Below, one piece after another: positions 23,819 through 42,822 of a DNA stretch of 64,000 nucleotides (its first letter is position 1; each line of letters opens with the position of its first letter). The translations under genes were made by a program, and so were the position numbers. The DNA is from Escherichia coli. GTDB lineage: Bacteria > Pseudomonadota > Gammaproteobacteria > Enterobacterales > Enterobacteriaceae. The DNA is taken from NCBI RefSeq assembly GCF_044324785.1, contig NZ_CP172127.1; one strand, 5' to 3'. Under the pieces are notes generated by a model. The model ran no database searches and was not told the origin of the DNA. It saw only the letters and a program-made list of their open reading frames with translations.

Positions 23819-24355
23819 TTAACTGCGTGGGTAATGGATGAGGGAATGAAAATGTACGATTTGCTCCCCACCATTACGATAGACATGCGTAACGTCTGCA
23901 GCAAATCGAGCGCCTTTTCCACAATTAAGGCTCTGCCATTCACCATCAACGCACAGATCAAGTTGCCCATCAATGACGACAACATGTTCGATTACTCCCT
24001 TCTCATGGGGCGTCGATTCACTTATTGCACCAGGTGCCATCTGAATCGAGAAGTGTTCAAAGCAGAGTTGTGGATCATAAGGAAACAGCGAAGTGATCAC
24101 CATCGCCTGCTGTTGTGGATCATAAACTGAAGGCGTAGCGGACTGTGGCGGAGAAATAAATGTCGAAAATGGCACGTTCAACCCGGTGGCAATTTTCCAT
24201 AATGTCGCGACCGTCGGGCTGGATTCATTACGCTCAATCTGCCCTAACATCGCTTTAGAAACGCCCGTCGCTTCTGCCAGTCGCGAAAGACTCCAGCCGC
24301 GCTGCTGACGTAGTTGTTTAAGTGTGGTGGATAAAAAGCGAGTGAGATTTTCCAT
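23819..24355 (-). CDS. sutR: XRE-family HTH regulator with C-terminal cupin domain
   Basis: 178-aa ORF; HTH (…LSRLAEATGVSKAMLGQIERNES…) plus cupin. Confidence 0.85.
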   Translation of the reverse strand: MENLTRFLSTTLKQLRQQRGWSLSRLAEATGVSKAMLGQIERNESSPTVATLWKIATGLNVPFSTFISPPQSATPSVYDPQQQAMVITSLFPYDPQLCFEHFSIQMAPGAISESTPHEKGVIEHVVVIDGQLDLCVDGEWQSLNCGKGARFAADVTHVYRNGGEQIVHFHSLIHYPRS

Positions 24356-24446
24356 GTGACTCCTCCGGCAAAGCGGAAGTTTATCACTTGTGCGTTATAA
24401 CGGACAAATGCTACGGTACCTGTACGCTATAACGCACGAGGTGACC

Positions 24447-25616
24447 ATGCGTCTGTTTCCTATTCCTCCACCCACGCTACTGGCGGGGTTTCTGGCGGTA
24501 TTAATTGGCTACGCCAGTTCAGCGGCAATAATCTGGCAAGCAGCGATTGTCGCCGGAGCCACCACTGCACAAATCTCTGGCTGGATGACGGCGCTGGGGC
24601 TGGCAATGGGCGTCAGTACGCTGGCTCTGACATTATGGTATCGCGTACCTGTTCTCACCGCATGGTCAACGCCTGGCGCGGCTTTGTTGGTCACCGGATT
24701 ACAGGGACTAACACTTAACGAAGCCATCGGCGTTTTTATTGTCACCAACGCGTTAATAGTCCTCTGCGGCATAACGGGACTCTTTGCTCGTCTGATGCAC
24801 ATTATTCCGCACTCGCTTGCGGCGGCAATGCTTGCCGGGATTTTATTACGCTTTGGTTTACAGGCGTTTGCCAGTCTGGACGGTCAATTTACGTTGTGTG
24901 GCAGTATGTTGCTGGTATGGCTGGCAACCAGGGCCGTTGCGCCGCGCTATGCGGTAATTGCCGCGATGATTATTGGGGTCGTGATCGTTATCGCGCAAGG
25001 TGACGTTGTCACAACTGATGTTGTCTTTAAACCCGTTCTCCCCACTTATATTACCCCTGATTTTTCGTTTGCTCACAGTCTGAGCGTTGCACTCCCCCTT
25101 TTTCTGGTGACGATGGCATCGCAAAACGCTCCAGGTATCGCAGCAATGAAAGCAGCCGGGTATTCGGCTCCTGTTTCGCCGTTGATTGTGTTTACTGGAT
25201 TGCTGGCGCTTGTTTTTTCCCCTTTCGGCGTTTATTCCGTCGGTATTGCGGCAATCACCGCGGCTATTTGTCAAAGCCCGGAAGCGCATCCGGATAAAGA
25301 TCAACGTTGGCTGGCAGCTGCCGTTGCAGGCATTTTTTATTTGCTCGCAGGTCTGTTTGGTAGTGCCATTACCGGGATGATGGCTGCCCTGCCCGTAAGT
25401 TGGATCCAGATGCTGGCAGGTCTGGCGCTGTTAAGTACCATTGGCGGCAGTTTGTATCAGGCGCTGCATAATGAGCGTGAGCGAGACGCGGCGGTGGTGG
25501 CATTTCTGGTAACGGCAAGTGGATTGACGCTGGTCGGGATTGGTTCTGCGTTCTGGGGATTAATTGCCGGAGGCGTTTGTTACGTGGTGTTGAATTTAAT
25601 CGCTCACAGAAACTGA
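24447..25616 (+). CDS. ydcO: BenE-family inner-membrane transporter
   Basis: ATG at 24447 preceded by GAGGTGA; about 389 aa, multi-TM. The ORF-track start at 24390 is an extension. Confidence 0.85.
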   Translation: MRLFPIPPPTLLAGFLAVLIGYASSAAIIWQAAIVAGATTAQISGWMTALGLAMGVSTLALTLWYRVPVLTAWSTPGAALLVTGLQGLTLNEAIGVFIVTNALIVLCGITGLFARLMHIIPHSLAAAMLAGILLRFGLQAFASLDGQFTLCGSMLLVWLATRAVAPRYAVIAAMIIGVVIVIAQGDVVTTDVVFKPVLPTYITPDFSFAHSLSVALPLFLVTMASQNAPGIAAMKAAGYSAPVSPLIVFTGLLALVFSPFGVYSVGIAAITAAICQSPEAHPDKDQRWLAAAVAGIFYLLAGLFGSAITGMMAALPVSWIQMLAGLALLSTIGGSLYQALHNERERDAAVVAFLVTASGLTLVGIGSAFWGLIAGGVCYVVLNLIAHRN

Positions 25617-25620
25617 TAAT

Positions 25621-25645
25621 AAAAAGCGCCATCTTACGATGGCGC
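25621..25645. terminator. Bidirectional terminator between convergent ydcO and ydcL
   Basis: aaaaa-GCGCCATC-ttac-GATGGCGC: 8-bp stem with an A5 flank, giving a U-tract on the minus strand. Confidence 0.55.
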
Positions 25646-25653
25646 GGCTGGAA

Positions 25654-26322
25654 TTACTTTTTGTTAACGTCAAACATAGTGGCATCGGTCGCCATGTCAT
25701 CAATAACTTGTTTAATATTTTCGAAAGCCATTGGCGTACTTTCGTTATTCAGGTCTTTACCTTCGCCCTGACGAACGACTTTGATAACCGGTTTATTAGT
25801 CGATGCATCAATCAGCTCACCTTCAAAATACAGGCGAGTATCCATGGTACGGTGGCCCGTCGCCATTTGCGTCCCCGCGACCACTAATGCGACAGGAACC
25901 ACTTCATAGAATTGCAGCCCTTCTTTGCTGGTATCTACACCGGTAATGGCCCCACGAAAAATCAGACTACGCGGCCCAGCGGTGGTAACCAGTGGTTTAC
26001 GCTGCGCTATCGCTTCTTTCATTTCGGTGTTGGTATAGTTCAAAATTTTATCCAGAACTTTCTGCCCTACCTGGGTAGAAGGTTTTGGCACCGGATAATA
26101 AGTGATTGGGTTCCAGACGATGCTGTCATATTTGCTTTGATCAAAACTCGGGTCTACCCAACGTAAAACAGGTTTACCTGTTGCCGAGGTTGTTTCTTTT
26201 AAATCAGAGTAATTGTTTAAAAAACCAGAATATTTATCTGGCTGGGTGATTTTAGAGGCACAACCAGACAGAGCCAACAAGCCGCATAAAGCTGCAACTT
26301 TCGCAATTGATGTGGTACGCAT
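25654..26322 (-). CDS. ydcL: Lipoprotein YdcL
   Basis: 222-aa ORF with lipobox (…LALSGCAS…). Confidence 0.85.
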   Translation of the reverse strand: MRTTSIAKVAALCGLLALSGCASKITQPDKYSGFLNNYSDLKETTSATGKPVLRWVDPSFDQSKYDSIVWNPITYYPVPKPSTQVGQKVLDKILNYTNTEMKEAIAQRKPLVTTAGPRSLIFRGAITGVDTSKEGLQFYEVVPVALVVAGTQMATGHRTMDTRLYFEGELIDASTNKPVIKVVRQGEGKDLNNESTPMAFENIKQVIDDMATDATMFDVNKK

Positions 26323-26624
26323 GAATAGTTTCCTGAGATGATTATATTACTTTCTAAGTTATAGCAAAAAGCGCCGCTTCGTGTTGTGGCAAAAAAAGTG
26401 TTGGTGAAAATAAATTTTTCAGCCCCTTTTCAGACGACATAGTCAATGCCGAAAAAGGGGCTAAGTCAATCATCAGTAGTTAAATTTCAGTAAGTTAAGC
26501 TGCTAAAAAACTTCGACTACTGTGATTAATTTCACATCCATTCGATAAAAATTATGCTTACCGAAAAGAAGAACAGTAAACCATCTCAGCGGGGGGAATT
26601 TTCACGCGCCTTGTTCTTAGCGGG

Positions 26625-27218
26625 TCATTTTTTACGTGCCAGCATCGTGGCGAAACGCAGTTTAATACGATTACCGTTGGCGTCGGTGCGGTGCAGCTCG
26701 CCGACGTCTTCATTGTATTTCACCCTCTCCCAGCCTTCGTAATATCGACGTAATTCTCCCTCTTTGAAGGCAAACGGGAAGCCGACGGTACATGGATAAT
26801 CAGCGGTATCCATCGCCGCCACAATCAGGTTGTAACCGCCAGGTTTAGTGCAACGTTGCATATTGGCAATCAGCCCTGGGATGGTTTTAGCCTCAAGGAA
26901 CATCAGCACCACAGTCGAAAGAATAAAATCGTATTGCCCATCAAATGTGAGGTTATTCAGATCAACGACCCGGGTATGTAAATTATCCAGATTTTCAATG
27001 GATTTAATACGCTCGACGTTGGCGATACTCATGGCATTTTTATCCCATGCGTCAACTTCATAACCATTGGCTGCCAGGTAAAGACTGTTACGACCATTGC
27101 CACAGCCCAGATCCAGCGTTTTACCGGGTTTAACCACTTTCACCGCTTCCAGTACTTCAGAGTGTGTGCGGGTTAATTCATACTTATCAGTAAAATAGTT
27201 TTCGTCACGAATGATCAT
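26625..27218 (-). CDS. tehB: Tellurite-resistance SAM-dependent methyltransferase
   Basis: 197-aa ORF with SAM motif [10 protein letters not shown]; overlaps tehA by 4 bp. Confidence 0.9.
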
Positions 27219-28207
27219 TCTTTGTCCTCAGCTTTCATTAAAACGGCGCGCTCGGTTCTGATTAACAATTTCCCCTGCATCAGAAGCGCGAAAGTACGGA
27301 TGAGCAGTATTGCAATTATAAAATTGGTAAAGATAAACAGCGGCACCGCCAGCGTATGGAAAAATCCATTATCGCTGCCACTCCCCAGATGTAAGCCGGT
27401 GGTTGCCAGTGCAGATACGCCGAACGAGAAACTCCAGAATGAAGCATTAAATGGCTGGGAGAGATACCATGGCATCAGACGTAGCATAAACAGCAGTTGC
27501 AGCAGCCCATAACCGAAAAGCATTTTCGCCAGCGTGTCACCCTCGCCGCCGTTGACGCTCAGCCAGGCACTACAGGCCACCAGCGCAGGAGCGAGCTGAA
27601 TGCCGAGTGATGTCCGCAGCGCCGTGGGTAATTCTCCCGAACTGCGCAGACGCTGCAAGATCACCGGTTCAAGGCTTAGCCATGAGAAAACGCCTGCGCC
27701 TAAAAACACCAGACCGGCGTCGGTGTAGCCCAACGCACCACAGGCCATTGCGCTGATAAAGTTGTTGGCAACTGTCGGCAGATACAGTCCAGGCGTGGTA
27801 GCTTCTTCAGGATGAGATCCGCGCCATAATCCCGCAGTTTGCCAGGCGGCATAAGCCAGTTGCACCACGACGCCAAAACTGAACAGGCACACCGCCAGTG
27901 GGCGAAACCACGGAACAAAACCAATCGCCACCAGCATCGTCGTTGCCGGAAACAAACTCACAAAACTGCTCAGCACTGGATGGCGAACTTCCGCCAGCAC
28001 GCTATGCGGAAAGCGTATGAGTCGGGTAATAAATGCGCTAGTCAATAATCCCCAGATGATCATCGCCAGAATCACCAGCCCATCCCCTAACCAGTGGCTG
28101 ACCTGCCAAACCTGGCTGGCATAGCGCCAGGCAAATCCCATCCCTATCGTCCCCAACACAATACCAAAGTAGCCTGCCGGCAAATTGAGCACTTTATCGC
28201 TCTGCAT
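27215..28207 (-). CDS. tehA: Tellurite-resistance / dicarboxylate-transporter-family membrane protein
   Basis: Internal start [19 protein letters not shown]… gives 330 aa. The 36-codon extension in the track ORF is judged spurious. Confidence 0.9.
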
Positions 28208-28330
28208 CTTCTTACTCATTTTGTTTAATTTATAAAGTATATTTGAAATGCATTTTATGGAATTTTCTCGAGCATAGCCAGAGCCGCAGAATTTGCTACG
28301 GTTATAGTAAGTCACCTGTGGGAAAACGCT

Positions 28331-29311
28331 ATGCGCAAATATCGTCTAAGTGAAGAACAGCGAGCCTTTAGTTATCAGGAAGATGGCACTAAAAAAAGTG
28401 TGTTATTACGGCAGATTATCGCCATTAGCGATTTTAACGATGTGATAGCAGGAACCGCTGGCGGCTGGATCGATCGCGAAACGGTGTTAGCACAGGAAGG
28501 AAATTGCTGGATTTACGACCAGAATGCTATTGCGTTCGGCGGAACGGTGATTTCCGGTAATACGCGCATCACCGGCACCAGCGTACTGTGGGGAGAGGTT
28601 TACGCAACGGATAACGTCTGGATCGATAATAGTGAAATCAGCCTGGGTGCATATATAAGTGACAGCGTCACCATTCGTGGCTCATTAGTTTGCGGTCAAT
28701 GTAGAATATTTGGTCACGCCTTAATTGATCAACATTCTATGATCGTCGCCGCACAAGGCTTAACGCCCGACCATCAACTCCTGCTCCAAATTTATGATCG
28801 CGCAAGGGTTAGCGCCTCGCGTATTGTCCACCAGGCACAAATTTATGGCGATGCCGTCGTCCGGTATGCTTTTATTGAACATCGCGCCGAAGTTTTTGAT
28901 TTTGCCAGTGTTGAAGGTAATGAAGAGAACAACGTCTGGCTATGTGATTGCGCTAAAGTTTACGGTCATGCGCAGGTGAAAGCTGGCATAGAAGAAGATG
29001 CCATTCCGACGATTCATTACAGTTCACAGGTGGCGGAATATGCCATTGTGGAAGGTAATTGTGTGTTAAAACATCATGTCTTGATTGGCGGAAATGCCGT
29101 GGTACGTGGCGGACCGATTCTGCTCGACGAGCACGTTGTAATACAAGGTGAGAGCCGTATTACAGGTGCGGTGATAATTGAAAACCATGTGGAGTTAACC
29201 GACCACGCCGTCGTTGAAGCCTTTGATGGCGACACGGTTCATGTCCGTGGTCCAAAAGTCATTAACGGCGAGGAGCGCATTACGCGAACGCCGCTGGCAG
29301 GGTTATTGTGA
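28331..29311 (+). CDS. ydcK: Uncharacterised beta-helix-repeat protein
   Basis: 326-aa ORF with repetitive hexapeptide-like segments; synteny. Confidence 0.85.
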
Positions 29312-29842
29312 ATCGATAATACGCGCGTATAAGTTCACATCATCATAGGCATCGTTCAGGAATTCAGCCTGTTTCAGGCAACCTTCAAGGATAAAACCAT
29401 TGCGCAAAGCGACCTGGTTGCTTTGCGCATTGTCCACCCGACATTTGATCACGAAGCGTCTAAGTTCACCAGACTGAGCGTAATGATTAATCAATGCCTG
29501 CAGCGCCTGAGAAATGATCCCCTGCCCCTGATGAGATTCGTCCAGCCAGTAGCCGATTTCAGCGGTTTTATTCAGTGGTTCAATACGATTAAACGAGATA
29601 ACGCCGATAAGTTCATCTTCTTTGAAAATCATGAACATTTTGGCATATCCGCGTTGATGCAACATTACATTGCCCTGCACCGTTTTTCGCGTGTCCTCTT
29701 CACTTTGAACAAACTGCGGCCAGTTTAGCGACTGCTGTAACCAGGTTCTATTTTTACAGATTAACTGATAAAGAGGTGTGACATGACTTTCTGCAACAGC
29801 ATGTAATTCAAGTGATTCACTTACTTTTATCGTTTCGGTCAT
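29303..29842 (-). CDS. rimL: Ribosomal-protein-serine N-acetyltransferase (GNAT)
   Basis: [16 protein letters not shown]…, 179 aa; its 3' end overlaps the 3' end of convergent ydcK by 9 bp. Confidence 0.85.
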
Positions 29843-29869
29843 CTTATCTCCAGTCAATCCATGCAGTTG

Positions 29870-29897
29870 TTAAAAAAGCCGCCTGGCTGGCGGCTTA
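29870..29897 (-). terminator. Rho-independent terminator downstream of ydcH
   Basis: AAGCCGCC-tggct-GGCGGCTT hairpin with an A6 flank, giving a U-tract on the minus strand. Confidence 0.55.
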
Positions 29898-29904
29898 GGA
29901 AAGT

Positions 29905-30129
29905 TTACACCTCTTTGACACTCTCCTGCTGCAGGATTTTGAGCATCTCATCTTTTAACTGTAGCTTTTGTTTTTTCATGCGGACCACTTCCGCATTGTA
30001 CCCTCGACCGTCGGAACCTTCCTTTCTGGCAATTTCATGATCAAGTTTATTGTGTTTATCGAACAAGGACATAAAGCGAGGATTTTCGTTTTTCAGACGG
30101 GATATTAAATCTCGGTATTCTGGAAACAT
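29905..30129 (-). CDS. ydcH: DUF465-family small protein
   Basis: About 74 aa (MFPEYRDLISRLKNENPRF…); synteny. Confidence 0.7.
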   Translation of the reverse strand: MFPEYRDLISRLKNENPRFMSLFDKHNKLDHEIARKEGSDGRGYNAEVVRMKKQKLQLKDEMLKILQQESVKEV

Positions 30130-30268
30130 ACGCACTCCCTGTTAGTGGCTGACAAGGTGTATATGAAATACACACTATCAGATTACTCATTTAACTTAGG
30201 GAAAAATGCGAGCGGGATCGTGTTTAACCAGACGGCACCTCCCGAAGAAGGTGCCGAAGAAAAAACGA

Positions 30269-31924
30269 CTAACTCATCACGCGGTCGTCAACATACTGAC
30301 GTTTATCCGGCGCTGGCGGGAAATACTGATAGAGCCATGTTTCACTGATAGCGTCGCCCTGACAACGCAGATACATCCGCATATCGACCGGATCAGTGGA
30401 GTCCGAAGTCGGATACCAGTCAAACTGAATACGATAACCATCAATGGGTTCAATATAGAGAATTTCGATTTGCTTCGCTTCCCCACTGGAAAGCGTAATC
30501 ACCGGCTCAATGCCTTTTGGTGCGGCAGCTTTCAGATCACCACCAACGAAATCGACGGCAAAACGACGCGCCCATTTTTCGGGATAGTGTTCACCAGGCG
30601 CCCAACCTTCCGGGAAACCGCCCATGCCGGTACGCGTTGCCATAACGCGCGCTAATGGGCAATGAACAGGCGGTTGCGCACTCCAGTACAGACGATACTG
30701 GAATGCAAACTCATCACCCGCTTTTACAGCTTTTTCTGGCTGCCAGAAGCAGACAATGTTATCCAGCGTTTCGCCCGTTGTTGGGATTTCCATCAGGCCG
30801 ATGGTGCCCTTACCCCACTTGTTACGCGGCTCCACCCACAGACTTGGGCGTTTGTTATACCAGCCCATAATGTCCTGATAATGGGAGAAATCACGATCCA
30901 GTTGCAATAAACCAAACCCTTTCGGGTTGTTGTCGGTGTAAGCATTGAACTGCAATTTTTGCGGATTATTCAGCGGACGGCAAATCCACTCGCCGTTGCC
31001 CCGCCACATGGACAGACGATCTGAGTCATGGATTTGCGGATGAATGGTGTCGCACATCCGACGTTCATTAGTACCGCAGCTGAACATGCTGGTCATCGGC
31101 GCAATGCCCAGCTGTTTAATGTCTTTGCGCGCATACAGGTGATTTTCCACATCCATAATCACCTGACTTTTCTCACAATGGATAGTGAACTTATAGGCAC
31201 CAGTAATGCTGGCGCTATCGAGCAACGCATAAACGGTAAAGGTGGTTGCCCCCGGTTTTACCGTATCAAACCAGAAGGCGGTAAAGTCGGGGAACTCTTC
31301 TTTACTGTCGGTGTAAGTGTCGATCGCCAGGCCGCGAGCCGACAAACCGTATTGATATGTATCATCAACCGCGCGGAAATAACTCGCGCCGAGGAATGAT
31401 ACGACATCACGGCGCGCCAGTTCGGGGGCTTTAAACACGCGAAAACCGGCAAAACCGAGATCGCTTTGCCCTTCTAATTGTTTGGTATCAACACCCGCAT
31501 CGTTGTATTTGAACAACTCCGGGCGAAAGTGAATTTCACGCGCCAGATGTGTTGCGGGATCAACAGAAAACATACGAACGCGGCGACGGAATCCCATTCC
31601 CATATGGAAGAACTGAGCGTCCAGTTGACGGTTCTCAACGTTATGCCAGAGCGATTTTTCGGCGTCGTATTGAATACTGTTATAAGCCTGCGGCGTCATT
31701 GTCGCCAGAGTGTCAGGTAACGGACGCGGCGCACCACGCCACGCGGTTTGCGCTAAGTCGTGCGCCATTGACTGTAGAATGGAGAAGTCAAAACGCTGGG
31801 TTTGCCCGTCGGCAATATCAGAATCTGCCGCGAATGCCGCCTGAGAAAAAAGAGAAGCAATGCCGCTGGTACCGCACACGGCGGCCATAGCCATTGAACC
31901 TTTAATAAATCGTCTACGATCCAT
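30269..31924 (-). CDS. opgD: Periplasmic glucans biosynthesis protein D, Tat-secreted
   Basis: 551-aa ORF with twin-arginine signal [23 protein letters not shown]…. Confidence 0.9.
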
Positions 31925-32148
31925 ACCTGAAAGTGAGTCCTTCTGGTGTTGTGAGTGGTCCCGCGCTGGTCGTTTTCAGCGGCAAGAAAGTGCTTATTTA
32001 TGACCGCTCACTCTAGACAATATTTATTAATAATCCAATTGTTGAACTCAGAGAATATGCATAAATCGGCAATTTTTTTATGTCGATGGGATGAGCCTGA
32101 TTCGTTTGTAAAATCAGGCAAATTTTTGCAAAGGCGGATGATCAGAAT

Positions 32149-33492
32149 TTAAAGCAAACCACAGCGACGTTTACTGCGTTCTTCCGCTTCCTGATAAAGC
32201 TGGAACTCATCCAAAACCGGGCAGCCCAACGCCTGCTCAAATGCTTCGCGACTGGCATTACCGTGACTGCGTGCCTGCGTTTCATTACCCAGATTTGACT
32301 GGAAGATCCCCGCCGCGCTAACAGGCAAGAAATCTTCATAGGTAATGGGTTGCGCCACTACCCAACCACGTTCAATTAAGGGCTGTGGATCGTCTCCGGG
32401 ATGAATCGCCTGACGATGCGCCTCACCTGAAGGCGTCAGACGGTACCGGAACCATGCCAACCCTTGCTGACGCATTAAAAACTCACTGTCAGGAAAAGTG
32501 CGGAAGGTTTCCTGTAAATGCATTTGGTGAGTGAGATTATCCTGCCCGGTTCCAGCGTTCCGCAGTAGATCATCATACAGTTGTCGCCCTTTCGGCGTTA
32601 ATGCCACGCCACGCTGCTCTATTTCACCAAAGCGCGCGGTATGCGTGCCCTGTTTCTGCCCTACAAACAACACCGTCTCTTCCAGTGCTTTAAAGCTAGT
32701 CTGGCGTAGTAAAATCGGTACCTCGCGGCGCGGCGGCCCTTCGATCAGAATTTTTGGTTCAATTCCGCATTCAGGCATCATCGACTGCACCCGGTCAATA
32801 TCCAGCGTGCGTGGCGTCAGGTGGTTGATATGGCATCCAGGAAAACAGACCACATCAGCAATCAGACGATGTTCGTTATGCAAGGCGCGATAGGTTACTT
32901 CATCCACCGTTGCTGACTGGTGCCAGCGAAACGTTTCCAGAGCTTCCTGCACAAACTCCTGTGCCTGTGTTTCGTTAAAACCGCCCTGCTGCTCATATTC
33001 CTCTAACAGTTGTCGACAACATGGGGTGAAGATATCGCGCTGACGCAGAATCTCCGCCGCTTTCTGGCGCAAAATTTCGTTCTCGATAAGCTCAAGGCGG
33101 AGTAATGAAGTAAAAACGCGGAAGGGATTACGCGCCAGAGAAGCATCATCAATGGGCCGAAATGCTGTCGAATGTACCGGCACCCCCGCCTGCGAGAGAT
33201 CGTAATAGCTCACCGGGTACATCCCCATAATGGCAAACATCCGCCGAAGAGTAGCAAGCTCTTGTGCAGTCCCAACACGAATCGCCCCATGACGTTCAAC
33301 ATTCAGTCGCGCCAGCTCGTCTGCATTTACCATTTTTTCGTGCAGTTGAGGATTGTTTTCCAGCACAGCCAGATTCACATCAGCTACCAGTTCCAGCAGC
33401 GTACCGTACTGCGGAACTTCTTGCTGGTACATGGCTGACATTGCCTGCGAAAACTGTTCCCGAATCTCATCCGCCGTGATGCTGTTCGCCAT
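32149..33492 (-). CDS. ydcJ: DUF1338-family protein
   Basis: 447-aa ORF; synteny with opgD and ydcI. Confidence 0.85.
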   Translation of the reverse strand: MANSITADEIREQFSQAMSAMYQQEVPQYGTLLELVADVNLAVLENNPQLHEKMVNADELARLNVERHGAIRVGTAQELATLRRMFAIMGMYPVSYYDLSQAGVPVHSTAFRPIDDASLARNPFRVFTSLLRLELIENEILRQKAAEILRQRDIFTPCCRQLLEEYEQQGGFNETQAQEFVQEALETFRWHQSATVDEVTYRALHNEHRLIADVVCFPGCHINHLTPRTLDIDRVQSMMPECGIEPKILIEGPPRREVPILLRQTSFKALEETVLFVGQKQGTHTARFGEIEQRGVALTPKGRQLYDDLLRNAGTGQDNLTHQMHLQETFRTFPDSEFLMRQQGLAWFRYRLTPSGEAHRQAIHPGDDPQPLIERGWVVAQPITYEDFLPVSAAGIFQSNLGNETQARSHGNASREAFEQALGCPVLDEFQLYQEAEERSKRRCGLL

Positions 33493-33708
33493 AGTGTCTG
33501 CCTCCAGTGGTCAGTAATCTGGAGTGTAGGTAACCGCATTCACTCTGGCGGGAAGAATTTACAAACTGTGATCTCGCCGCGAAAACATCAATATTATCCA
33601 TTTTGCTGTAACATAATTGCTTTAATTGTTAATAATATTTTGCAATCAAGTTATCATAATCAAACAACTTCACTTGTCAGCGACACCGCTTCGTTTTTAA
33701 CATCGCTT

Positions 33709-34632
33709 ATGGAAAAAAATAGTCTGTTTAGTCAGCGCATCCGTTTGCGCCACCTTCATACATTCGTAGCTGTCGCACAACAAGGAACTTTGGGGCGCGC
33801 GGCTGAAACCCTTAATTTGAGTCAACCTGCGCTCTCTAAGACATTGAATGAACTGGAGCAGCTGACGGGCGCTCGCTTGTTTGAGCGTGGTCGTCAGGGG
33901 GCGCAACTTACCTTACCCGGCGAACAATTTTTAACGCATGCAGTCAGAGTTCTTGACGCCATCAACACTGCCGGACAGTCGCTTCATCGTAAAGAAGGTC
34001 TTAATAATGATGTCGTCAGGGTTGGTGCACTACCTACTGCGGCACTGGGGATATTACCTTCGGTTATAGGTCAGTTTCATCAGCAACAAAAAGAGACGAC
34101 CTTGCAAGTTGCGACAATGAGTAACCCTATGATTCTTGCGGGTTTAAAAACCGGGGAAATCGATATCGGCATTGGTCGGATGTCAGATCCTGAACTGATG
34201 ACCGGACTTAATTACGAACTGCTGTTTCTTGAATCGCTGAAGCTGGTTGTCCGCCCTAATCACCCGCTACTTCAGGAGAACGTAACGCTAAGCCGGGTGC
34301 TGGAATGGCCGGTCGTTGTATCACCAGAAGGCACTGCGCCACGCCAGCATTCAGATGCATTAGTGCAGAGCCAGGGCTGTAAAATTCCTTCGGGTTGTAT
34401 CGAAACGCTGTCTGCTTCGCTATCTCGTCAACTTACGGTTGAATACGACTACGTGTGGTTTGTCCCTTCTGGCGCGGTAAAAGACGACCTGCGTCATGCC
34501 ACGCTGGTGGCCCTGCCTGTTCCGGGTCATGGTGCAGGCGAACCGATTGGAATACTGACCCGCGTAGATGCGACGTTCTCTTCTGGTTGCCAGTTGATGA
34601 TTAACGCTATTCGAAAATCAATGCCGTTCTGA
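33709..34632 (+). CDS. ydcI: LysR-family transcriptional regulator
   Basis: Internal start MEKNSLFSQRIRLRHLHTFVAVAQQG… gives 307 aa with a LysR HTH. The ORF-track start at 33568 is an extension. Confidence 0.85.
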   Translation: MEKNSLFSQRIRLRHLHTFVAVAQQGTLGRAAETLNLSQPALSKTLNELEQLTGARLFERGRQGAQLTLPGEQFLTHAVRVLDAINTAGQSLHRKEGLNNDVVRVGALPTAALGILPSVIGQFHQQQKETTLQVATMSNPMILAGLKTGEIDIGIGRMSDPELMTGLNYELLFLESLKLVVRPNHPLLQENVTLSRVLEWPVVVSPEGTAPRQHSDALVQSQGCKIPSGCIETLSASLSRQLTVEYDYVWFVPSGAVKDDLRHATLVALPVPGHGAGEPIGILTRVDATFSSGCQLMINAIRKSMPF

Positions 34633-34637
34633 AAGGT

Positions 34638-34662
34638 GAAGGGATCTGTCGATCCCTCCTTT
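34638..34662 (+). terminator. Hairpin between convergent ydcI and trg
   Basis: AGGGATC-tgtc-GATCCCT inverted repeat followed by T-rich sequence. Confidence 0.45.
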
Positions 34663-34669
34663 AACATTT

Positions 34670-36310
34670 TCACACCGTAGCGAAACTAACTGGTTCACCA
34701 GCTCCGCGAGGTTCTGCCGACACAGAATGTTTGTTCAGACGGAATACGTCCACCGCCTCAGTTAATCGTGCCGCCTGTTCTTCAAGGGACACCGCCGCCG
34801 CTGAGGCCTCTTCTACCAGAGAAGCATTCTGTTGCGTCACCTTATCCATTTCAGAAATCGCCTGGCTAACCTGTGTTATGCCTCTGCTTTGTTCATCCGA
34901 GGCGGCGGCGATTTCCTGCATGATATGTGTGACACTCGCGACGGCATCAACAATAGTGCTCATGGTTTTCCCTGCCGTTGCCACCTCATCCGACCCCAGG
35001 TCAATTAACCTGACTGATTCACTGATCAAGCCTTCAATCTCTTTCGACGCCTGAGCGCTGCGGCTTGCGAGTGTCCGTACTTCGCTGGCGACAACGGCAA
35101 ATCCACGCCCTTGCTCACCCGCTCGCGCGGCTTCAACGGCAGCATTCAGTGCCAGAATATTCGTCTGGAAAGCAATACTGTTGATGACGGCGGTGATCTC
35201 AGAAATTTTCTTCGAACTCGTGGAGATAGCGCCCATCGTTTTTACTACACCGGAAACCGTCTGCCCGCCATCGCTGGCTTTAATAGAAGCCTCCTGCGCC
35301 AGTTTGCTGGCATAATGCGCGTTATCCGCATTCTGTTTCACCGTCGCAGTGAGTTGCTCCATGCTGGCGGCAGTTTGTTCAATTGCCGCCGCTTGTTCTT
35401 CAGTGCGAGATGAAAGGTCCGCATTGCCAGCGGAAATTTCGCTGGTGCCACGATAAATCTCTTCCGCGCCCTGTCGAACGGTCCCTACTGTCATCCCCAG
35501 TGAATGCTGCATTTGCTGTAAATGACGACTTAAGCGACCGATTTCATTACGACCCGCCGGTTCATCATTCATCGTCAGATCGCCACTGGCGATTTTTTCA
35601 ATTCGTTGTGCGGCATGTTGCAGTGGACGAATGACAATCCGACGTAGCACTATAAATGTTATCAGCGTCATGACCAGGGCAAGCACAAACGCGCCAATCA
35701 TGAACATCCCACCCAGGCGGGTGCGCTGATGGGCCAGTTCCGCCAGTTGGTTGGCTCTGGTGCTACGTATCTTAACGGCTTTGCTCAAAATATCGGTATA
35801 AGCATTATCCAGCGGTCGGATCTGCTCACTTTCATGATTGATAATCGCTTCAAACATGCCATTTTTGGCATATTTCAACATCGGTTGCATACCCGTGATA
35901 TAAGCCTGGAAGCGTTGATTTAATTCAGTGTCGAGGGCTTCATCAGCAGGTGTTTTCACCGGCCGATTCTGATAAGCACGATACCCTTGCTGCGACTGTT
36001 TAATCTCCGATTCGGCTTGCGCAATATTTCGCTTCATTGCTTCCATTTCCGCAATACGACTCGCTGCCCCGGCCTGAATCATATTGATCCGGGCTGAACG
36101 CAAAAAATCTGAACTGTTCGCTAACCCGGTCCGAATCTCAATCTCCGCAGTAACATCCCGCTGATCGCGATCGGCCTGCCAAAGGAAATAGCCGGCCAGG
36201 GCTGAACTTAATGCGAATAGAACTAAGATACCGCCAAGAATGCAGGCAAATAACGGAACCAGCCTGATGTGATGCAAAAAACCTAATCGCTGTGAGGGAG
36301 TTGTAATCAT
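34670..36310 (-). CDS. trg: Methyl-accepting chemotaxis protein III (ribose/galactose sensor)
   Basis: 546-aa ORF with two TM segments, HAMP domain and conserved MCP signalling domain. Confidence 0.9.
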
Positions 36311-36349
36311 TACCGTTGTCTCTCGTCCAGGTTTACTCCTGATAGAAAG

Positions 36350-36376
36350 TCATCGGCACTTGACGGTAATTACTTA
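36350..36376 (-). promoter_or_regulatory. Putative sigma-28 (FliA) promoter of trg
   Basis: On the minus strand, TAAG-N15-GCCGATGA matches the sigma-28 consensus TAAA-N15-GCCGATAA, about 40 to 65 nt upstream of the trg ATG. Confidence 0.5.
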
Positions 36377-36594
36377 TGACCAAAAACCTCTTTGCGTCAC
36401 ATTTTTACAACAATTATGGCAGAGAAGAATAATGCCATTGGAATGAAGAGAGTAACGAATGGCTAAACCGAATGACGAAAAATTCTGGAAAACAGCACGC
36501 AATTTCGTCAAGTGATTATTTTCGTCCCTAAGGAAACCTCATAGGATGCCTGCGGGTGCCTGAGACTTTCTGTTTTCAGGCTAACCGGGAATCA

Positions 36595-36641
36595 GAAAGA
36601 CGAAGGCCCCGACCGATATTTCTATCAACCGAGGCCAACGA

Positions 36642-36660
<19 letters not shown>
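36595..36660 (-). ncRNA. sokB: Possible SokB antisense RNA (type I antitoxin); position approximate
   Basis: Inferred only from the hok/sok paradigm: the antisense RNA should overlap the mokB translation start at 36642. Ends are not determinable by eye. Confidence 0.25.
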
Positions 36661-36849
<189 letters not shown>

Positions 36850-36920
36850 GGGCAAGCGCGGGGATTTTCCCCGCGCATCTGACTAGCAGATTCATTTTCT
36901 CATGGCACCCCTTTTACACT

Positions 36921-37094
36921 TCAGTTAGTGCATGTTTTTTTCGATGCACTAATAGAACCATCATTACAGACAAATTTGCCGCCTGCCGTACAGTGTGAGA
37001 TCCCCCCTTTCGAACCAGAACAGGGTTTGCGCCCGGCATCGGCATAAAAGGAAGCAAGCGCTCCCATAACCAAGATAAGTGCCAGTTTTTTCAT
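36921..37094 (-). CDS. ydcA: Small secreted protein YdcA, 57 aa
   Basis: Hand translation: MKKLALILVMGALASFYADAGRKPCSGSKGGISHCTAGGKFVCNDGSISASKKTCTN*; signal peptide; GGAGG SD upstream. Confidence 0.8.
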   Translation of the reverse strand: MKKLALILVMGALASFYADAGRKPCSGSKGGISHCTAGGKFVCNDGSISASKKTCTN

Positions 37095-37264
37095 ATAACC
37101 TCCATGGTTTATCGAATCTTATGTTCGATTTGAACGTTATACGCTGGTTTATTTTGATACCGTTGATGAGATCAAAGATCGGGTGAATTGATTAAAAATA
37201 AGCCAGATGGACGTATGGGCAAGGATTATGGTTTTATTTGTCATACAAATAAATATAATAGGCG

Positions 37265-37328
37265 CTTCCGATGTAGACCCGTATTCTTCGCCTGTACCAC
37301 GGGTCGGTTTTAGTACAGGCGTTTTCTT
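37265..37328 (+). ncRNA. rydC: RydC small regulatory RNA (Hfq-dependent)
   Basis: Sequence cttccgatgtagacccgtattcttcgcctgtaccacgggtcggttttagtacaggcgttttctt matches RydC as I remember it; ends in a hairpin plus U-tract; located between ydcA and cybB. Confidence 0.8.
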
Positions 37329-37338
37329 TAAATATCCT

Positions 37339-37869
37339 TCAGGAACGTTTACGCGGCATCATGCGTAGAAGTGTGTTGTCCTTCCAGAAATAGTGGTGTG
37401 CCAGTGCAGCCGCAGCGTGCAACCCGATGACAAAGTATCCCAGATTCGCCAGCGTTTCATGCCACGACTTTAAGCTATCAACCCGTTCGAAATTGGCCTC
37501 TGATGCATAAGGCATCGTCATACCAAACGCAAACCACGGGTTACCCCGGTTATACATCATCACCAAACCAATCACTGGCAGCGCAATAAACAGGAGATAG
37601 ATCACCAAATGTCCCAAATGCGCCAGTCCCGTCATCATCGGTTTTGGCTTAGGTATAATCGGCGGGGTTGGGTATTTCAGCCTTAACAAAAGACGAACCA
37701 CCATCAGCACGAGAATTGTGATGCCACAGGAAACATGAATCATGTTGATGAGCGGCCGATCGCTACGTGGGAAGAAACCACGAAACTCCATTGCGCAATA
37801 CGCTGCGATAACCAGCAAAAAGACCAGCCAGTGAATGCTGATTTGTAACCTTGAGTATTTATTTTCCAT
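37339..37869 (-). CDS. cybB: Cytochrome b561
   Basis: Internal start MENKYSRLQISIHWLVFLLV… gives 176 aa with four TM helices. The 12-codon extension in the track ORF is judged spurious. Confidence 0.9.
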   Translation of the reverse strand: MENKYSRLQISIHWLVFLLVIAAYCAMEFRGFFPRSDRPLINMIHVSCGITILVLMVVRLLLRLKYPTPPIIPKPKPMMTGLAHLGHLVIYLLFIALPVIGLVMMYNRGNPWFAFGMTMPYASEANFERVDSLKSWHETLANLGYFVIGLHAAAALAHHYFWKDNTLLRMMPRKRS

Positions 37870-38057
37870 AACATTTCCTGCTTTAAAACAATTTGCCGTT
37901 AACATAACGAGCTTTTCTTAAAATTTCATTAAATATTGTTCACCCGTTTTCAGTACGTTACGTTTCACGGCAAGAATGTAGATTGCCCATCCCGCCATCC
38001 TGGTCTAAGCCTGGAAAGGATCAATTTTCATCCGAACGTTCCTGACAGGAGAAGACC

Positions 38058-39059
38058 ATGAGTAAAGTTGGTATTAACGGTTTTGGTCGTATCGGTCGAC
38101 TGGTGTTGCGTCGATTACTTGAAGTCAAAAGCAACATAGACATTGTTGCTATTAATGATCTCACTTCCCCAAAAATTCTCGCCTACCTGTTGAAACATGA
38201 TTCAAACTACGGACCGTTCCCCTGGAGCGTTGATTTTACGGAAGATTCACTTATCGTTGATGGAAAAAGCATCGCGGTTTACGCCGAAAAAGAGGCTAAA
38301 AATATTCCATGGAAAGCGAAAGGCGCAGAAATCATTGTCGAATGTACTGGCTTTTATACCTCCGCCGAGAAATCGCAGGCGCACCTTGATGCTGGTGCGA
38401 AGAAGGTGTTGATTTCCGCCCCTGCCGGTGAAATGAAAACCATCGTTTATAACGTCAATGACGACACACTGGATGGCAACGACACCATTGTTTCCGTGGC
38501 GTCATGCACCACTAACTGCCTTGCGCCGATGGCCAAAGCCTTGCACGACAGTTTCGGAATAGAAGTCGGCACGATGACGACCATTCATGCCTATACCGGC
38601 ACTCAGTCACTGGTGGATGGTCCGCGAGGTAAAGATCTACGCGCTTCACGTGCAGCGGCAGAAAATATCATTCCCCACACTACAGGTGCGGCAAAAGCCA
38701 TTGGTCTGGTGATCCCGGAACTGAGCGGCAAACTGAAAGGTCATGCGCAACGCGTGCCGGTGAAAACAGGTTCGGTCACTGAGCTGGTATCGATTCTCGG
38801 AAAAAAAGTGACTGCCGAAGAGGTGAATAACGCACTTAAACAAGCAACCACCAATAACGAGTCATTTGGTTATACCGATGAAGAAATAGTCTCTTCCGAT
38901 ATCATTGGCAGCCATTTCGGTTCGGTGTTTGATGCCACGCAAACGGAAATTACCGCCGTGGGCGATTTACAACTGGTGAAAACGGTCGCCTGGTACGATA
39001 ACGAATATGGCTTCGTCACGCAGCTTATTCGCACCCTCGAAAAATTCGCTAAACTCTGA
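38058..39059 (+). CDS. gapC: Glyceraldehyde-3-phosphate dehydrogenase, full length
   Basis: 333-aa uninterrupted ORF with NAD-binding GFGRIGR and the active-site Cys motif [10 protein letters not shown]. Confidence 0.9.
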
Positions 39060-39066
39060 CGCGCAC

Positions 39067-39095
39067 AGGCGGAGGAAAAAACCTCCGCCTCTTTC
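39067..39095 (+). terminator. Hairpin terminator between convergent gapC and aldA
   Basis: AGGCGGAGG-aaaaaa-CCTCCGCCT, a perfect 9-bp stem, followed by ctttc. Confidence 0.45.
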
Positions 39096-39100
39096 ACTCA

Positions 39101-40540
39101 TTAAGACTGTAAATAAACCACCTGGGTCTGCAGATATTCATGCAGGCCATGTTTACCATCTGCGCCGCCAATACCAGATTTACGCCATCCGGCGTGGAAG
39201 CCTTGCATAGCTTCGAAGTTTTCACGGTTGATGTAAGTTTCACCAAACTTCAGCCCTTTAATGGCTTTCATCGCGACGTTCAGATTTTGGGTATAGATTG
39301 ATGAGGTCAGGCCGTAATCACTGTCATTAGCCATTGCGATAGCGTCTTCCAGCGTGTCAAATGCGACCACTGGCAGCACCGGGCCAAAGGTTTCCTCGTG
39401 CATAATCGACATTTCCTGGCGAACATCCAGTAGCAATGTCGGCGGATAATAATATCCTTTCCCCTCTACCGCTTTGCCACCCAACGCCACTCTCGCCCCT
39501 TCTTCTACTGCGCGCGCCACTTTTTGCTCGACCCTTTCCAGCGCCGCGGCGTTAATCAACGGCCCCATCGCAATGTCGTTGCGTTCAGCGGGGTTACCAA
39601 ATTGAACCGCCTGCATCGCTTCACCCAGCCGATTGACGAACTGATCATAAATGCCTTTCTGTACATAAACACGTTCTGCACAGTTACACACTTGCCCACT
39701 ATTAATGACGCGTGAATCAACGATGGCTTTGACTGCCAGTTCAAGATCGGCATCGTCCATTACGATAGCTGGTGCTTTACCACCCAATTCCAGACACACT
39801 TTGGTGATGTTTTTCGCCGCAGTCGCCATGATCTTTTCACCTGCAGAGACGCTGCCTGTCATACTGACCATTGCGACCTTTGGGTTACCCGCCAGTTCTT
39901 GCCCAACGGTTTCACCACGCCCCAGAACAAGGTTAAACACGCCGCGCGGAAGGCCTATTTCATCGACGATTTTGGCGAATGCAATCGCATTGTTTGGCGT
40001 AAATTCACTGGGTTTAATGACAATGGTATTACCAGTCAAAAGAGCGGGAGCCATTTTGCGGGCAATGAGGAAGAACGGGAAGTTCCACGGCAGAATGCCG
40101 GTAGTCACACCAAGCGCACGTTTAAACAGAAGAATATTTTCTCCTGGACGATCGCTTTGAATAATCTCGCCCTCGTAACGCCGTGCCCACTCCGCCATGT
40201 AATCGATATAGTCCGCAGTAAAAGCCACTTCGACTTCAGCCAGCTGCTGGATCTTGCCCCCTTCTTCAACAATCAGCGCACTGATTTCACTGGCGCGTTC
40301 GCGGATCCCGGCGGAGATTTTGCGCAACCAACTGGCGCGTTCAATGGCAGGCAACGCTTCCCATTCTGGTTGTGCACGTTCTGCTGCATCGATTGCCTTA
40401 CGGGCATCCTCGGCCTGACCATCGGGAATGCGGGAAATGACAGCCTCAGTAGCAGGGTTTACCACATCAATCCATGCGTCTCCACGCCAGGTAACAAACT
40501 GTCCATCGATATACATAGGATGTTGAACGGGTACTGACAT
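39101..40540 (-). CDS. aldA: Lactaldehyde / aldehyde dehydrogenase A
   Basis: 479-aa ORF MSVPVQHPMYIDGQFV… with ALDH motifs. Confidence 0.9.
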   Translation of the reverse strand: MSVPVQHPMYIDGQFVTWRGDAWIDVVNPATEAVISRIPDGQAEDARKAIDAAERAQPEWEALPAIERASWLRKISAGIRERASEISALIVEEGGKIQQLAEVEVAFTADYIDYMAEWARRYEGEIIQSDRPGENILLFKRALGVTTGILPWNFPFFLIARKMAPALLTGNTIVIKPSEFTPNNAIAFAKIVDEIGLPRGVFNLVLGRGETVGQELAGNPKVAMVSMTGSVSAGEKIMATAAKNITKVCLELGGKAPAIVMDDADLELAVKAIVDSRVINSGQVCNCAERVYVQKGIYDQFVNRLGEAMQAVQFGNPAERNDIAMGPLINAAALERVEQKVARAVEEGARVALGGKAVEGKGYYYPPTLLLDVRQEMSIMHEETFGPVLPVVAFDTLEDAIAMANDSDYGLTSSIYTQNLNVAMKAIKGLKFGETYINRENFEAMQGFHAGWRKSGIGGADGKHGLHEYLQTQVVYLQS

Positions 40541-40736
40541 TGGCGACTCCTGTGATTTATATGTTTGTTTTTGGTAAATGCATTGTTAATTAACATCAAT
40601 CATCATAGAGACGGCATCGTGAAAGGACAATTCTGTGAAGGGCTTCATAAAAACAAGTGTAAAAGGAATAAAAGGCAGAAATAAACGTCAGGAGTCATGC
40701 CCGTTTGCAAACAAATGGTTAACAAACGGGCAATTT

Positions 40737-41537
40737 TTAACGTAACGAGCGACTTTCCATCGCCTCGATGAGCACCGCATCGTGTTTCAGCGTTTGCCAT
40801 GCCTGGATGACTTCTGCCGGAAAATCAACGTGAACGATAAAATCTCGCCCGCGTGGACCGTAGCCATCGCTATCATCGCGTAAACGTGGCAGCTCGCCAG
40901 TGAGTAGTGAGAGATAACGCTCAACCGGCCATAATCCTTGCAACGGATTAACAAAGATTACACTGTCTGCGTTGTTTCCTAGCTGAGGAACGAATCCGGG
41001 ATAACTTAACCAGCGAGGTGCATCGGGATTGTCCCCAGTCATACGGCGGAACGTCGCCATCGTGCGCCGCTGCATGGTGGGGTCCTGAACAACGATAGCC
41101 GTATGAACTCGTTCTACGGCCTGATTCAATAGCGCGATGCTAAAGCGTGCGTTTTCACCGCAGTTTGTTGACTGGTCTTCAATCCAGATTTTTTCATGCG
41201 GAATGTGCCAGAACTGATGAGCGATATCCGCCAGGATGGTCGCTTCTGCTCTGCCAGTGGTGCGAATAGTGTTGTAGTGCGGATGCTGTGCGATGGCACT
41301 ATACAAAAAAGTTGTCGAGTGACCGATACCACCACTAATCAGTAGAGGAATTTGCTGATCGCGGGCAATCTTGCATGCCGCATCGATAGTTGGCATAACC
41401 GCATTGCCTGCAAGGATCACGCAATCGGCCTGATACGGCATCTCACCGGAGAAATCATCCTGCGCCAGCCACTGACCGATAACATTTATGGCATCTATGG
41501 TTGCCGGCGAAAGCGTCGGAAACGGGGTAATGTTCAT
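40737..41537 (-). CDS. ydcF: DUF218-domain protein
   Basis: 266-aa ORF; synteny next to aldA. Confidence 0.85.
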
Positions 41538-41926
41538 GGTTCCTCCTTATCGTTTCCTTAAGAATACTGCGTGAGATAATAATGAGAAGCGGAGCACTCT
41601 GAAAGGAAGATGATGCTTTTTCTATCGCGCCATCGCGAACCAGACACTGGTTTTAGTCATACTGTATTTGCGGAGAAACTGTTGATAAAACATCTATAAC
41701 ATAATGTTCTATCATTTTTAAGTGACAGATAAGTTGGTGTGATATTTATGAAATATTCATTCTTATATTTCTCAATCAATGAGAACATTTGCAACACGCT
41801 CATTAATGGGAAATCCTTAAATTTAAATTGAATAATATCTGGCCTGAGCTATAAACTACTATCCGTCTAAGGAGACAAATTGTCCTTTTTATTCATCAAC
41901 ATAATACTATATGTCGAGAAACATAC

Positions 41927-42421
41927 ATGAAAAAAATGTTTCAACTTTTAGAAACCGCCTGGCCTGCCGTAAAAACAACAGGACTTACAGGTTGCGTAAC
42001 CGCTCCGGAAACTGAAGATAACCTTCTTTTATTAGAGGATAAATACGCAACACATATTCCAAAAGACTATCGGCAGTTATTGTCTCATTTTGGCGCATGT
42101 CATTTTGCCGATCCTCAAATTTATACTTTGAAGGATCTGGACAGATATTACCCTCTATTTTTGCAACAATGGGAAGATTATAAAAAAGAATATCCATTAT
42201 TGAACAACATTGATCCTTTTCCTGTTGGCAGTTTTGGCGATGGGAGTGTAGCTTTTCTTGACCGCAACAGCCTAAAAATTTATATTCTCATTCATGATTT
42301 TGGTATATTTTCCGATGATGTCGGTGATTTCCCTTGTGAGTTATGCTTTGAAAATTTTGGTGAGTTAGTGGAAATGCAAGTTGAAATGATTCTTTATTTA
42401 CAGCAATGTGGAGTCTCATGA
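41927..42421 (+). CDS. SUKH / SMI1-KNR4-family protein (immunity-protein-like), 164 aa
   Basis: AT-rich ORF; motif blocks LLLEDKYATHIPKDYRQLLSHFGA and PFPVGSFGDGSVAFLD fit the SMI1/KNR4 pattern as I remember it. Not a gene I place at this position in K-12. Confidence 0.55.
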   Translation: MKKMFQLLETAWPAVKTTGLTGCVTAPETEDNLLLLEDKYATHIPKDYRQLLSHFGACHFADPQIYTLKDLDRYYPLFLQQWEDYKKEYPLLNNIDPFPVGSFGDGSVAFLDRNSLKIYILIHDFGIFSDDVGDFPCELCFENFGELVEMQVEMILYLQQCGVS

Positions 42422-42717
42422 AAAATAAAATCATCACTCCTGTCCTTACTGAAAACAAAGTGAATTTGATAGCAGAAAAATATTGTAAAAAGTATAATCT
42501 TAATGGCTCGCTGGCATACAAAATCACTGCTATTAAATTTCTTCCTGATGGTATGAAATCATACGACCTTGATATTCCATTATGGATGGTAGTCAGAGAT
42601 GTTAAAGGTTGGGATGATATGGAAATTACGATTTTTATTTCTGACAAAAACAGTGAAGTTCTTTGTTGCAGTAATATTTGGTATCCAGTATATCGTCCTC
42701 ATCAAGCAGATTTGTAA
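42418..42717 (+). CDS. Hypothetical protein, 99 aa, translationally coupled to the upstream SUKH gene
   Basis: ATG at 42418 overlaps the upstream TGA (ATGA); GGAG lies 5 to 8 nt upstream. The ORF track lists the same frame starting at 42406. No recognisable domain. Confidence 0.5.
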   Translation: MKNKIITPVLTENKVNLIAEKYCKKYNLNGSLAYKITAIKFLPDGMKSYDLDIPLWMVVRDVKGWDDMEITIFISDKNSEVLCCSNIWYPVYRPHQADL

Positions 42718-42763
42718 TAAGCACGTAAGGAGTATCTCCCTTGCTATTTTTCAGAATTCATAA

Positions 42764-42800
42764 AGAAAAAACCCGGCGCTAAATGCTTACCGGGTTTTAG
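42764..42800. terminator. Bidirectional terminator shared by hrpA and the inserted two-gene cassette
   Basis: aaaaaa-ACCCGG…CCGGGT-tttt hairpin immediately downstream of both convergent units. Confidence 0.5.
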
Positions 42801-42822
42801 ATTTATCAGTCAAATAGCAGGG

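Follow-up and report, generated by a model that had tools for sequence, protein, structure and literature searches.

Among the closest described systems are the insertion sequences IS608 and ISDra2, which insert 3' of TTAC or TTGAT by a single-strand 'peel and paste' route and do not duplicate their target. Their single-strand insertion takes place on the lagging-strand template, and IS200/IS605 elements excise seamlessly, leaving no scar. Characterised TnpBs use a guide whose template is the DNA just outside the right end of the element. In E. coli K-12, the feature 'insertion sequence:IS609' is annotated in NC_000913.3 at 1503161-1504908 (1748 bp), between ydcL (which ends at 1503125) and ydcO (which ends at 1504905). 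It contains insQ (ydcM, b1432; TnpB) and the tnpA pseudogene yncK. A sequence-only reading of the DNA studied here had put the K-12 copy at this place; the annotation confirms it and rules out a location elsewhere in K-12.

We examined the same locus in a 64-kb stretch of E. coli DNA (the window), where ydcO and ydcL are convergent and the gap between them is exactly 37 bp. The following features are used below:

24447 to 25616, plus strand: ydcO, a BenE-family transporter (ORF list; Pfam BenE, E 2e-161; RefSeq annotation of strain N3).
25597 to 25618, minus strand: bases that would border the right end of IS609 in an occupied allele, the putative TnpB guide template (from the published TnpB mechanism).
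25617 to 25653, no strand: ydcO-ydcL spacer, the unoccupied form of the K-12 IS609 locus (colinear with the K-12 flanks minus the 1748-bp IS609).
25619 to 25622, minus strand: TTAT, the IS609 target and left-end cleavage motif (junction alignment, BLAST break and other IS609 sites).
25619 to 25645, minus strand: predicted intrinsic terminator of ydcL, with a stem-loop from 25645 to 25626 (GCGCCATC GTAA GATGGCGC) and a T-tract TTTTTAT from 25625 to 25619 (terminator scan, fold and conservation).
25654 to 26322, minus strand: ydcL, a DUF3313 lipoprotein (ORF list; Pfam DUF3313, E 4e-63; RefSeq annotation).

Neither IS609 DNA nor an InsQ homologue was found anywhere in the 64 kb (blastn and tblastn), so the 37-bp spacer lacks the element, as first read. 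Strain N3 has a spacer identical to that of the window, and RefSeq names its flanking genes ydcO and ydcL. The open frame of ydcO reaches upstream to a GTG at 24390 (ORF 24390-25616, plus strand). A sequence search of YdcL against the PDB returned chance matches only (E at least 0.4). An Rfam scan of positions 24000-27000, with E up to 1, found nothing at the spacer; its two matches were chance hits to eukaryotic families, far under the gathering scores.

Aligning the window with the K-12 region fixed the insertion point between positions 25618 and 25619, which leaves 2 nt between it and the ydcO stop and 7 nt between it and the spacer hairpin. In BLAST comparisons the break falls at query position 1229/1230, again window 25618/25619, and is at the same base in ~3,270 genomes with a split locus. 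With a slash marking each junction, K-12 reads ...GATGGCGCTTTTTAT / CCGGTGCGCC...(1748 bp)...GGAGGATGTCAA / TATCGG... in the ydcL sense, and O55:H7 and ST131 read ...GATGGCGCTTTTTAT / TATCGG.... In the orientation of the window, K-12 reads ...GAAACCGATA / TTGACATCCTCCACGCC...(IS609)...TTTTACGGCGCACCGG / ATAAAAAGCGCCATC..., and the empty alleles of O55:H7 USDA5905 and ST131 4993 read ...GAAACCGATA / ATAAAAAGCGCCATC..., which is what K-12 gives once the element is taken out: no base is repeated and none is missing. The window spacer, too, is K-12 minus 1748 bp, save a few point differences. On the ydcL-sense strand the site is GCGC-TTTTTAT^TATC, and IS609 therefore lies 3' of the TTAT that ends the T-tract. 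At both junctions, adding the element to the empty allele yields the occupied one, whether K-12 is set against O55:H7, ST131 or the window; no target sequence is duplicated or deleted, as expected for IS200/IS605 elements. The ATA on either side of the K-12 copy (cgATA-IS-ATAaaa) could be mistaken for a 3-bp target duplication; this is ruled out, as the empty sites already read ATAATA.

The window shares with the K-12 locus the flanks, the TTAT target and the sequence on either side of the insertion point. It differs from K-12 in having TGA instead of CGA at the ydcO stop, in its hairpin loop (TTAC instead of TAAC) and at two positions of the would-be guide region. The first of these differences changes where YdcO ends. 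In the window and in N3 there is a TGA (25614-25616 in the window) where all other strains examined read CGA, and it is followed by TAA TAA. The window protein thus ends ...HRN-stop with two further in-frame stops behind it (25611-25622). Compared with it, YdcO has one more residue in O55:H7 and ST131, whose frame terminates CGA TAA, and two more in K-12. The K-12 frame reads AAC CGA TAt tga, and its TGA stop comes from the right end of IS609 (K-12 locus L001, 6906-6913).

By its sequence, the K-12 element has the hallmarks of the IS200/IS605 family and the standard 'peel and paste' anatomy. Pfam identifies OrfB_IS605, Cas12f1-like TNB and HTH_OrfB domains in InsQ, and the protein matches the solved structures of the ISDra2 TnpB RNA-guided endonuclease in the PDB with an E-value of 1.9e-54. 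Translated yncK is an IS200-like transposase (Y1_Tnp, E 1e-40) interrupted by a stop codon. The left and right ends carry the subterminal hairpins CCCCATCCTTCAGGGCGGGG and CCACGTCCTTCAGGGCGTGG, which share the core ...C(G/A)TCCTTCAGGGCG...; the right end finishes TCAA, and there are no terminal inverted repeats. The left end of the K-12 copy points toward ydcL and the right end (...GGAGGATGTCAA) toward ydcO, and the hairpin remains attached to ydcL. At three other independent sites of IS609 or its solo derivatives (L025, L026 and L027) the left end likewise follows TTAT, and in a plasmid copy (L024) the left end is preceded by GGATA, not TTAT. In a survey of TnpB-containing elements, TTAT is among the motifs at which IS605-group elements are most often cleaved at the left end, and TCAA among those at the right end (PMC9956272).

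The empty sites of IS608 and ISDra2 are a close parallel in several respects: these elements and IS609 insert next to a 4-nt motif, on its 3' side, and duplicate no target; they have subterminal hairpins, and their right end finishes in TCAA. Unlike in those systems, the IS609 motif is TTAT, it is known here from sequence comparison, and the in-place E. coli copies that we inspected have a broken tnpA. The two systems may also agree in the strand that is used. The GC skew of the window's plus strand is -0.048, which makes the TTAT-bearing strand the G-rich one and, as with IS608 and ISDra2, the presumed lagging-strand template. An IS609 encoding both the Y1 transposase TnpA and TnpB/InsQ would have entered single-stranded DNA just 3' of the TTAT that ends the ydcL T-tract. 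Its target, by extension from the work on IS608 and ISDra2, would have been the ydcL-sense, G-rich strand serving as lagging-strand template.

If InsQ works like characterised TnpBs, its guide would come from TATCGGTTTCTGTCAGCG... and its target would be TTAT, acting as the TAM, followed by TATCGGTTTCTGTCAGCG. That target is exactly the O55:H7 empty allele; ST131 has one mismatch to it and the window two. Over the would-be guide region the window reads TATCAGTTTCTGTGAGCGATTA and K-12 TATCGGTTTCTGTCAGCGATTA, with differences at positions 5 and 14. A literature search on insQ, TnpB and E. coli found nothing relevant.

The IS609 target forms the tail of the hairpin in the spacer, which had been described as a clean bidirectional terminator. 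The hairpin itself is real: a perfect 8-bp GC-rich stem-loop, GCGCCATC-TTAC-GATGGCGC, at 25626-25645. On the minus strand, the sense of ydcL, the stem (8 pairs, 6 of them G-C) is followed by TTTTTATTAT, giving the stem and U-tract of an intrinsic terminator. It resembles Rho-independent terminators in its 8-bp GC-rich stem, its 4-nt loop and its TTTTTAT tail, all directly after the ydcL stop. The 61 nt around the hairpin fold on this strand at -16.2 kcal/mol (z = -3.0). The bidirectional part of the description did not hold, as just one of the strands has a canonical tail: the plus strand, the sense of ydcO, has GGCTGGAATTAC after the stem, without a T-run, and the terminator scan calls the hairpin on the minus strand alone.

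Comparison with other genomes points the same way. All 10 orthologous sites from Escherichia and Citrobacter keep every pair of the stem, and its loop and flanks vary. The E. albertii hairpin (GCGCCGTC...GACGGCGC) has one compensatory change, from A-U to G-C, although this is thin covariation (a single compensatory pair, a level that 40 of 500 shuffles equalled or beat). Lelliottia and Enterobacter carry a different, unrelated hairpin with a T-run at the same position after ydcL. Because ydcL is the constant partner of the hairpin across genera, we assign the hairpin to ydcL as its predicted intrinsic terminator, which keeps its position across Enterobacteriaceae, and do not regard it as shared by the two genes.

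One could still argue that the hairpin serves both ydcO and ydcL, in which case IS609 would uncouple ydcO from its terminator in K-12, where the element sits between ydcO and the hairpin. The two convergent genes are only 37 bp apart, the stem is symmetric with an A-run on the ydcO side, and the plus-strand RNA of the same 61 nt folds well (-20.3 kcal/mol, z = -5.3, with none of 200 shuffles as good). We nevertheless regard this as unlikely given the plus-strand tail and the single-strand scan call, and given that a hairpin with a T-run follows ydcL in Citrobacter, Lelliottia and Enterobacter, where the retrieved locus either has ydcO ~2 kb off or does not contain it. In Citrobacter, Lelliottia and Enterobacteriaceae RIT714, the intervening ~2 kb holds two ORFs (L015, 2885-4825; also L012, L016, L017 and L022). 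Judged by eye from the translations, we take these to resemble an AraC-type regulator and an EamA/DMT-type transporter. Since this DNA parts the two genes in those three groups, the tight ydcO-ydcL junction is specific to Escherichia.

We then consider how the two alleles are distributed. With the K-12 ydcL-IS609-ydcO query, 3251 of 5423 complete E. coli genomes (~60%) prove to carry IS609 at this place. At least 80% of the window's ydcO-ydcL query is covered in one place in 2138 of 5416 complete genomes, a count of contiguous loci that can include insertions of up to ~1.4 kb, such as the IS200C of strain AR_0067. In a spread sample of these short forms, 20 of 21 rows span exactly or almost exactly 1876 bp and are truly empty. 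Named strains with the empty allele include O157:H7, O55:H7, O25b:H4-ST131 and ATCC 25922, and those with the occupied allele include K-12, B and ATCC 8739. Strains of phylogroups B2 and E are among the empty ones, a statement about this handful of named strains. The lineage of the window is itself rare: N3, isolated from a human rectal swab, is the one complete E. coli genome that matches it at 99% identity or more over 20 kb (window 26400-46400), and the other 5418 are at most 98.0% identical over that length.

The in-place copies look old. STEC2018-607 and K-12 are 98.2% identical inside IS609 and 98.9-99.0% identical in the flanks, and both IS609 genes of STEC2018-607 are annotated as pseudogenes. 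No transposition of IS609 was seen in K-12 mutation-accumulation lines (PMC5009759). This pattern fits one old insertion that would now be inert and decaying in place, and we infer a single origin for the E. coli copy.

For the polarity of the two states, species-representative genomes were scanned with a degenerate DNA pattern for the YdcL motif WNPITYYP. The scan returned seventeen loci, two of them chance matches in Leptospira; E. fergusonii, E. marmotae, E. ruysiae and the E. coli type genome were not among them, and the E. whittamii locus stopped inside ydcL, leaving its junction unreadable. Four outgroup Escherichia genomes have no IS at the junction:

'E. coli' E69, 88.9% identical to the window: ydcO, the same hairpin and ydcL; no IS.
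SCPM-O-B-8794, 88.2% identical to the window: ydcO, the same hairpin and ydcL; no IS.
Escherichia sp. E1V33, 87.1% identical to the window: ydcO, the same hairpin and ydcL; no IS.
E. albertii, 86% identical to the window: no IS; the hairpin lies beside what is left of the ydcO 3' end, with sutR and ydcO deleted.

In E. albertii NBRC 107761 (L007, 1083-3300), sutR and nearly all of ydcO are missing, and rlhA adjoins the ydcO 3' stub and the ydcL hairpin. Escherichia sp. MOD1-EC7003, at 95.5% identity to the window the nearest outgroup that was recovered, differs from these four in carrying a 46-bp IS609-derived unit, CCAGTGCGCCTTATATCCCCGTCCTTCAGTGCGTGGAGGATGCCAA (L021, 243-288), exactly at the TTAT of the ydcL terminator, with ydcO and most of sutR deleted. 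With this remnant at the same junction, occupation of the site is not confined to one E. coli clade.

Because E69, SCPM-O-B-8794, E1V33 and E. albertii all lack the IS, the empty state is most likely ancestral and is the most parsimonious reading, although scarless excision leaves room for a past occupation. The earlier suggestion of a likely ancestral empty site is thereby supported, with that caveat and the MOD1-EC7003 remnant attached to it. We are fairly confident that the window spacer is an uninterrupted, probably never-occupied ydcO-ydcL junction and that IS609 was gained in the line of descent of K-12 and of many other E. coli. The inserted copy would then have decayed in place and been passed on vertically, and the original sequence would have been kept in the lineage of the window, in the B2 and E strains and in Escherichia species further removed.

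It is much less probable, and we give it little credence, that the site was once occupied, in the E. coli ancestor or in the lineage of the window, and later emptied by precise TnpA excision or by recombination with an empty-site donor, which would make the spacer a secondary empty site. Such a history could draw on the seamless excision that is known behaviour of the family, on the ~60% of complete E. coli genomes with IS609 in place and on the remnant in the nearest outgroup at the same TTAT. It would also agree with the 2 of 22 bases at which the window departs from the K-12 right-end flank, as expected if escape from TnpB re-cleavage mattered. Yet the three outgroups at 87-89% identity and E. 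albertii have no IS, and the presumed B2 and E strains are empty too, which together would call for several independent losses against one or two gains. The tnpA gene is a pseudogene in both in-place copies inspected, and the element was immobile in the mutation-accumulation lines (PMC5009759). Nor does the remnant argue for shared ancestry: its left-end subtype is TTATAT, matching the IS609 copy L026 and the plasmid-borne unit L024, and the in-place copy of K-12 has GTAAAA. Because of this difference, the MOD1-EC7003 unit suggests an insertion event separate from that of K-12 IS609.

A third insertion lies at almost the same spot. In E. coli AR_0067, a 709-bp IS200C (L003, ~1475-2185) lies in the T/A-run of the same spacer, 3 bp from the IS609 point (window ~25621-25623). 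It is the second IS200/IS605-family element found in the tail of the ydcL terminator. The K-12-type IS609, the 46-bp derivative of MOD1-EC7003 and the IS200C of AR_0067 make three insertions within 3 bp at this TTAT, in a window that has 769 TTAT sites. Their closeness hints at a preferred landing site beside a stable hairpin.

Units like that of MOD1-EC7003 occur elsewhere. Each 46-bp solo consists of left-end nt 1-20, one hairpin and a right-end tail, and a match to it is present in 800 of 5426 E. coli genomes. Solos recur 3' of TTAT at unrelated chromosomal sites in STEC, and a near-identical copy follows GGATA on ~60-kb plasmids (the units are at 401-446 in L024, L025 and L027). They could be products of repeated recombination between the two near-identical subterminal hairpins, or tiny mobilisable units. 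The chromosome of E. coli E308 carries a second IS609-type copy at another TTAT (~23.1 kb; L026, 401-837); its left end is a perfect palindrome (GCGCCTTATATCCCC...GGGGATATAAGGCGC), and its tnpA is frameshifted. Two or more left-end subtypes of IS609 therefore circulate in E. coli. We offer only tentatively, as a possible but somewhat doubtful reading, that the TTAT of the ydcL terminator is a recurrent landing pad for IS200/IS605 elements and that the 46-bp solos may be their smallest mobilisable derivatives, not just deletion scars.

What the window holds is an ordinary, already known IS presence/absence polymorphism at a locus that is annotated in K-12. The comparison fixes the insertion point and target of IS609 to the base (TTAT, no duplication) and shows that K-12 ydcO takes its stop codon from the right end of the element. 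The empty allele could serve as a natural target for testing InsQ/TnpB as a guide-directed nuclease, with the window allele as a version carrying two mismatches. Last, the repeated use of a terminator-adjacent TTAT and the 46-bp solos may interest those who work on the IS200/IS605 family.
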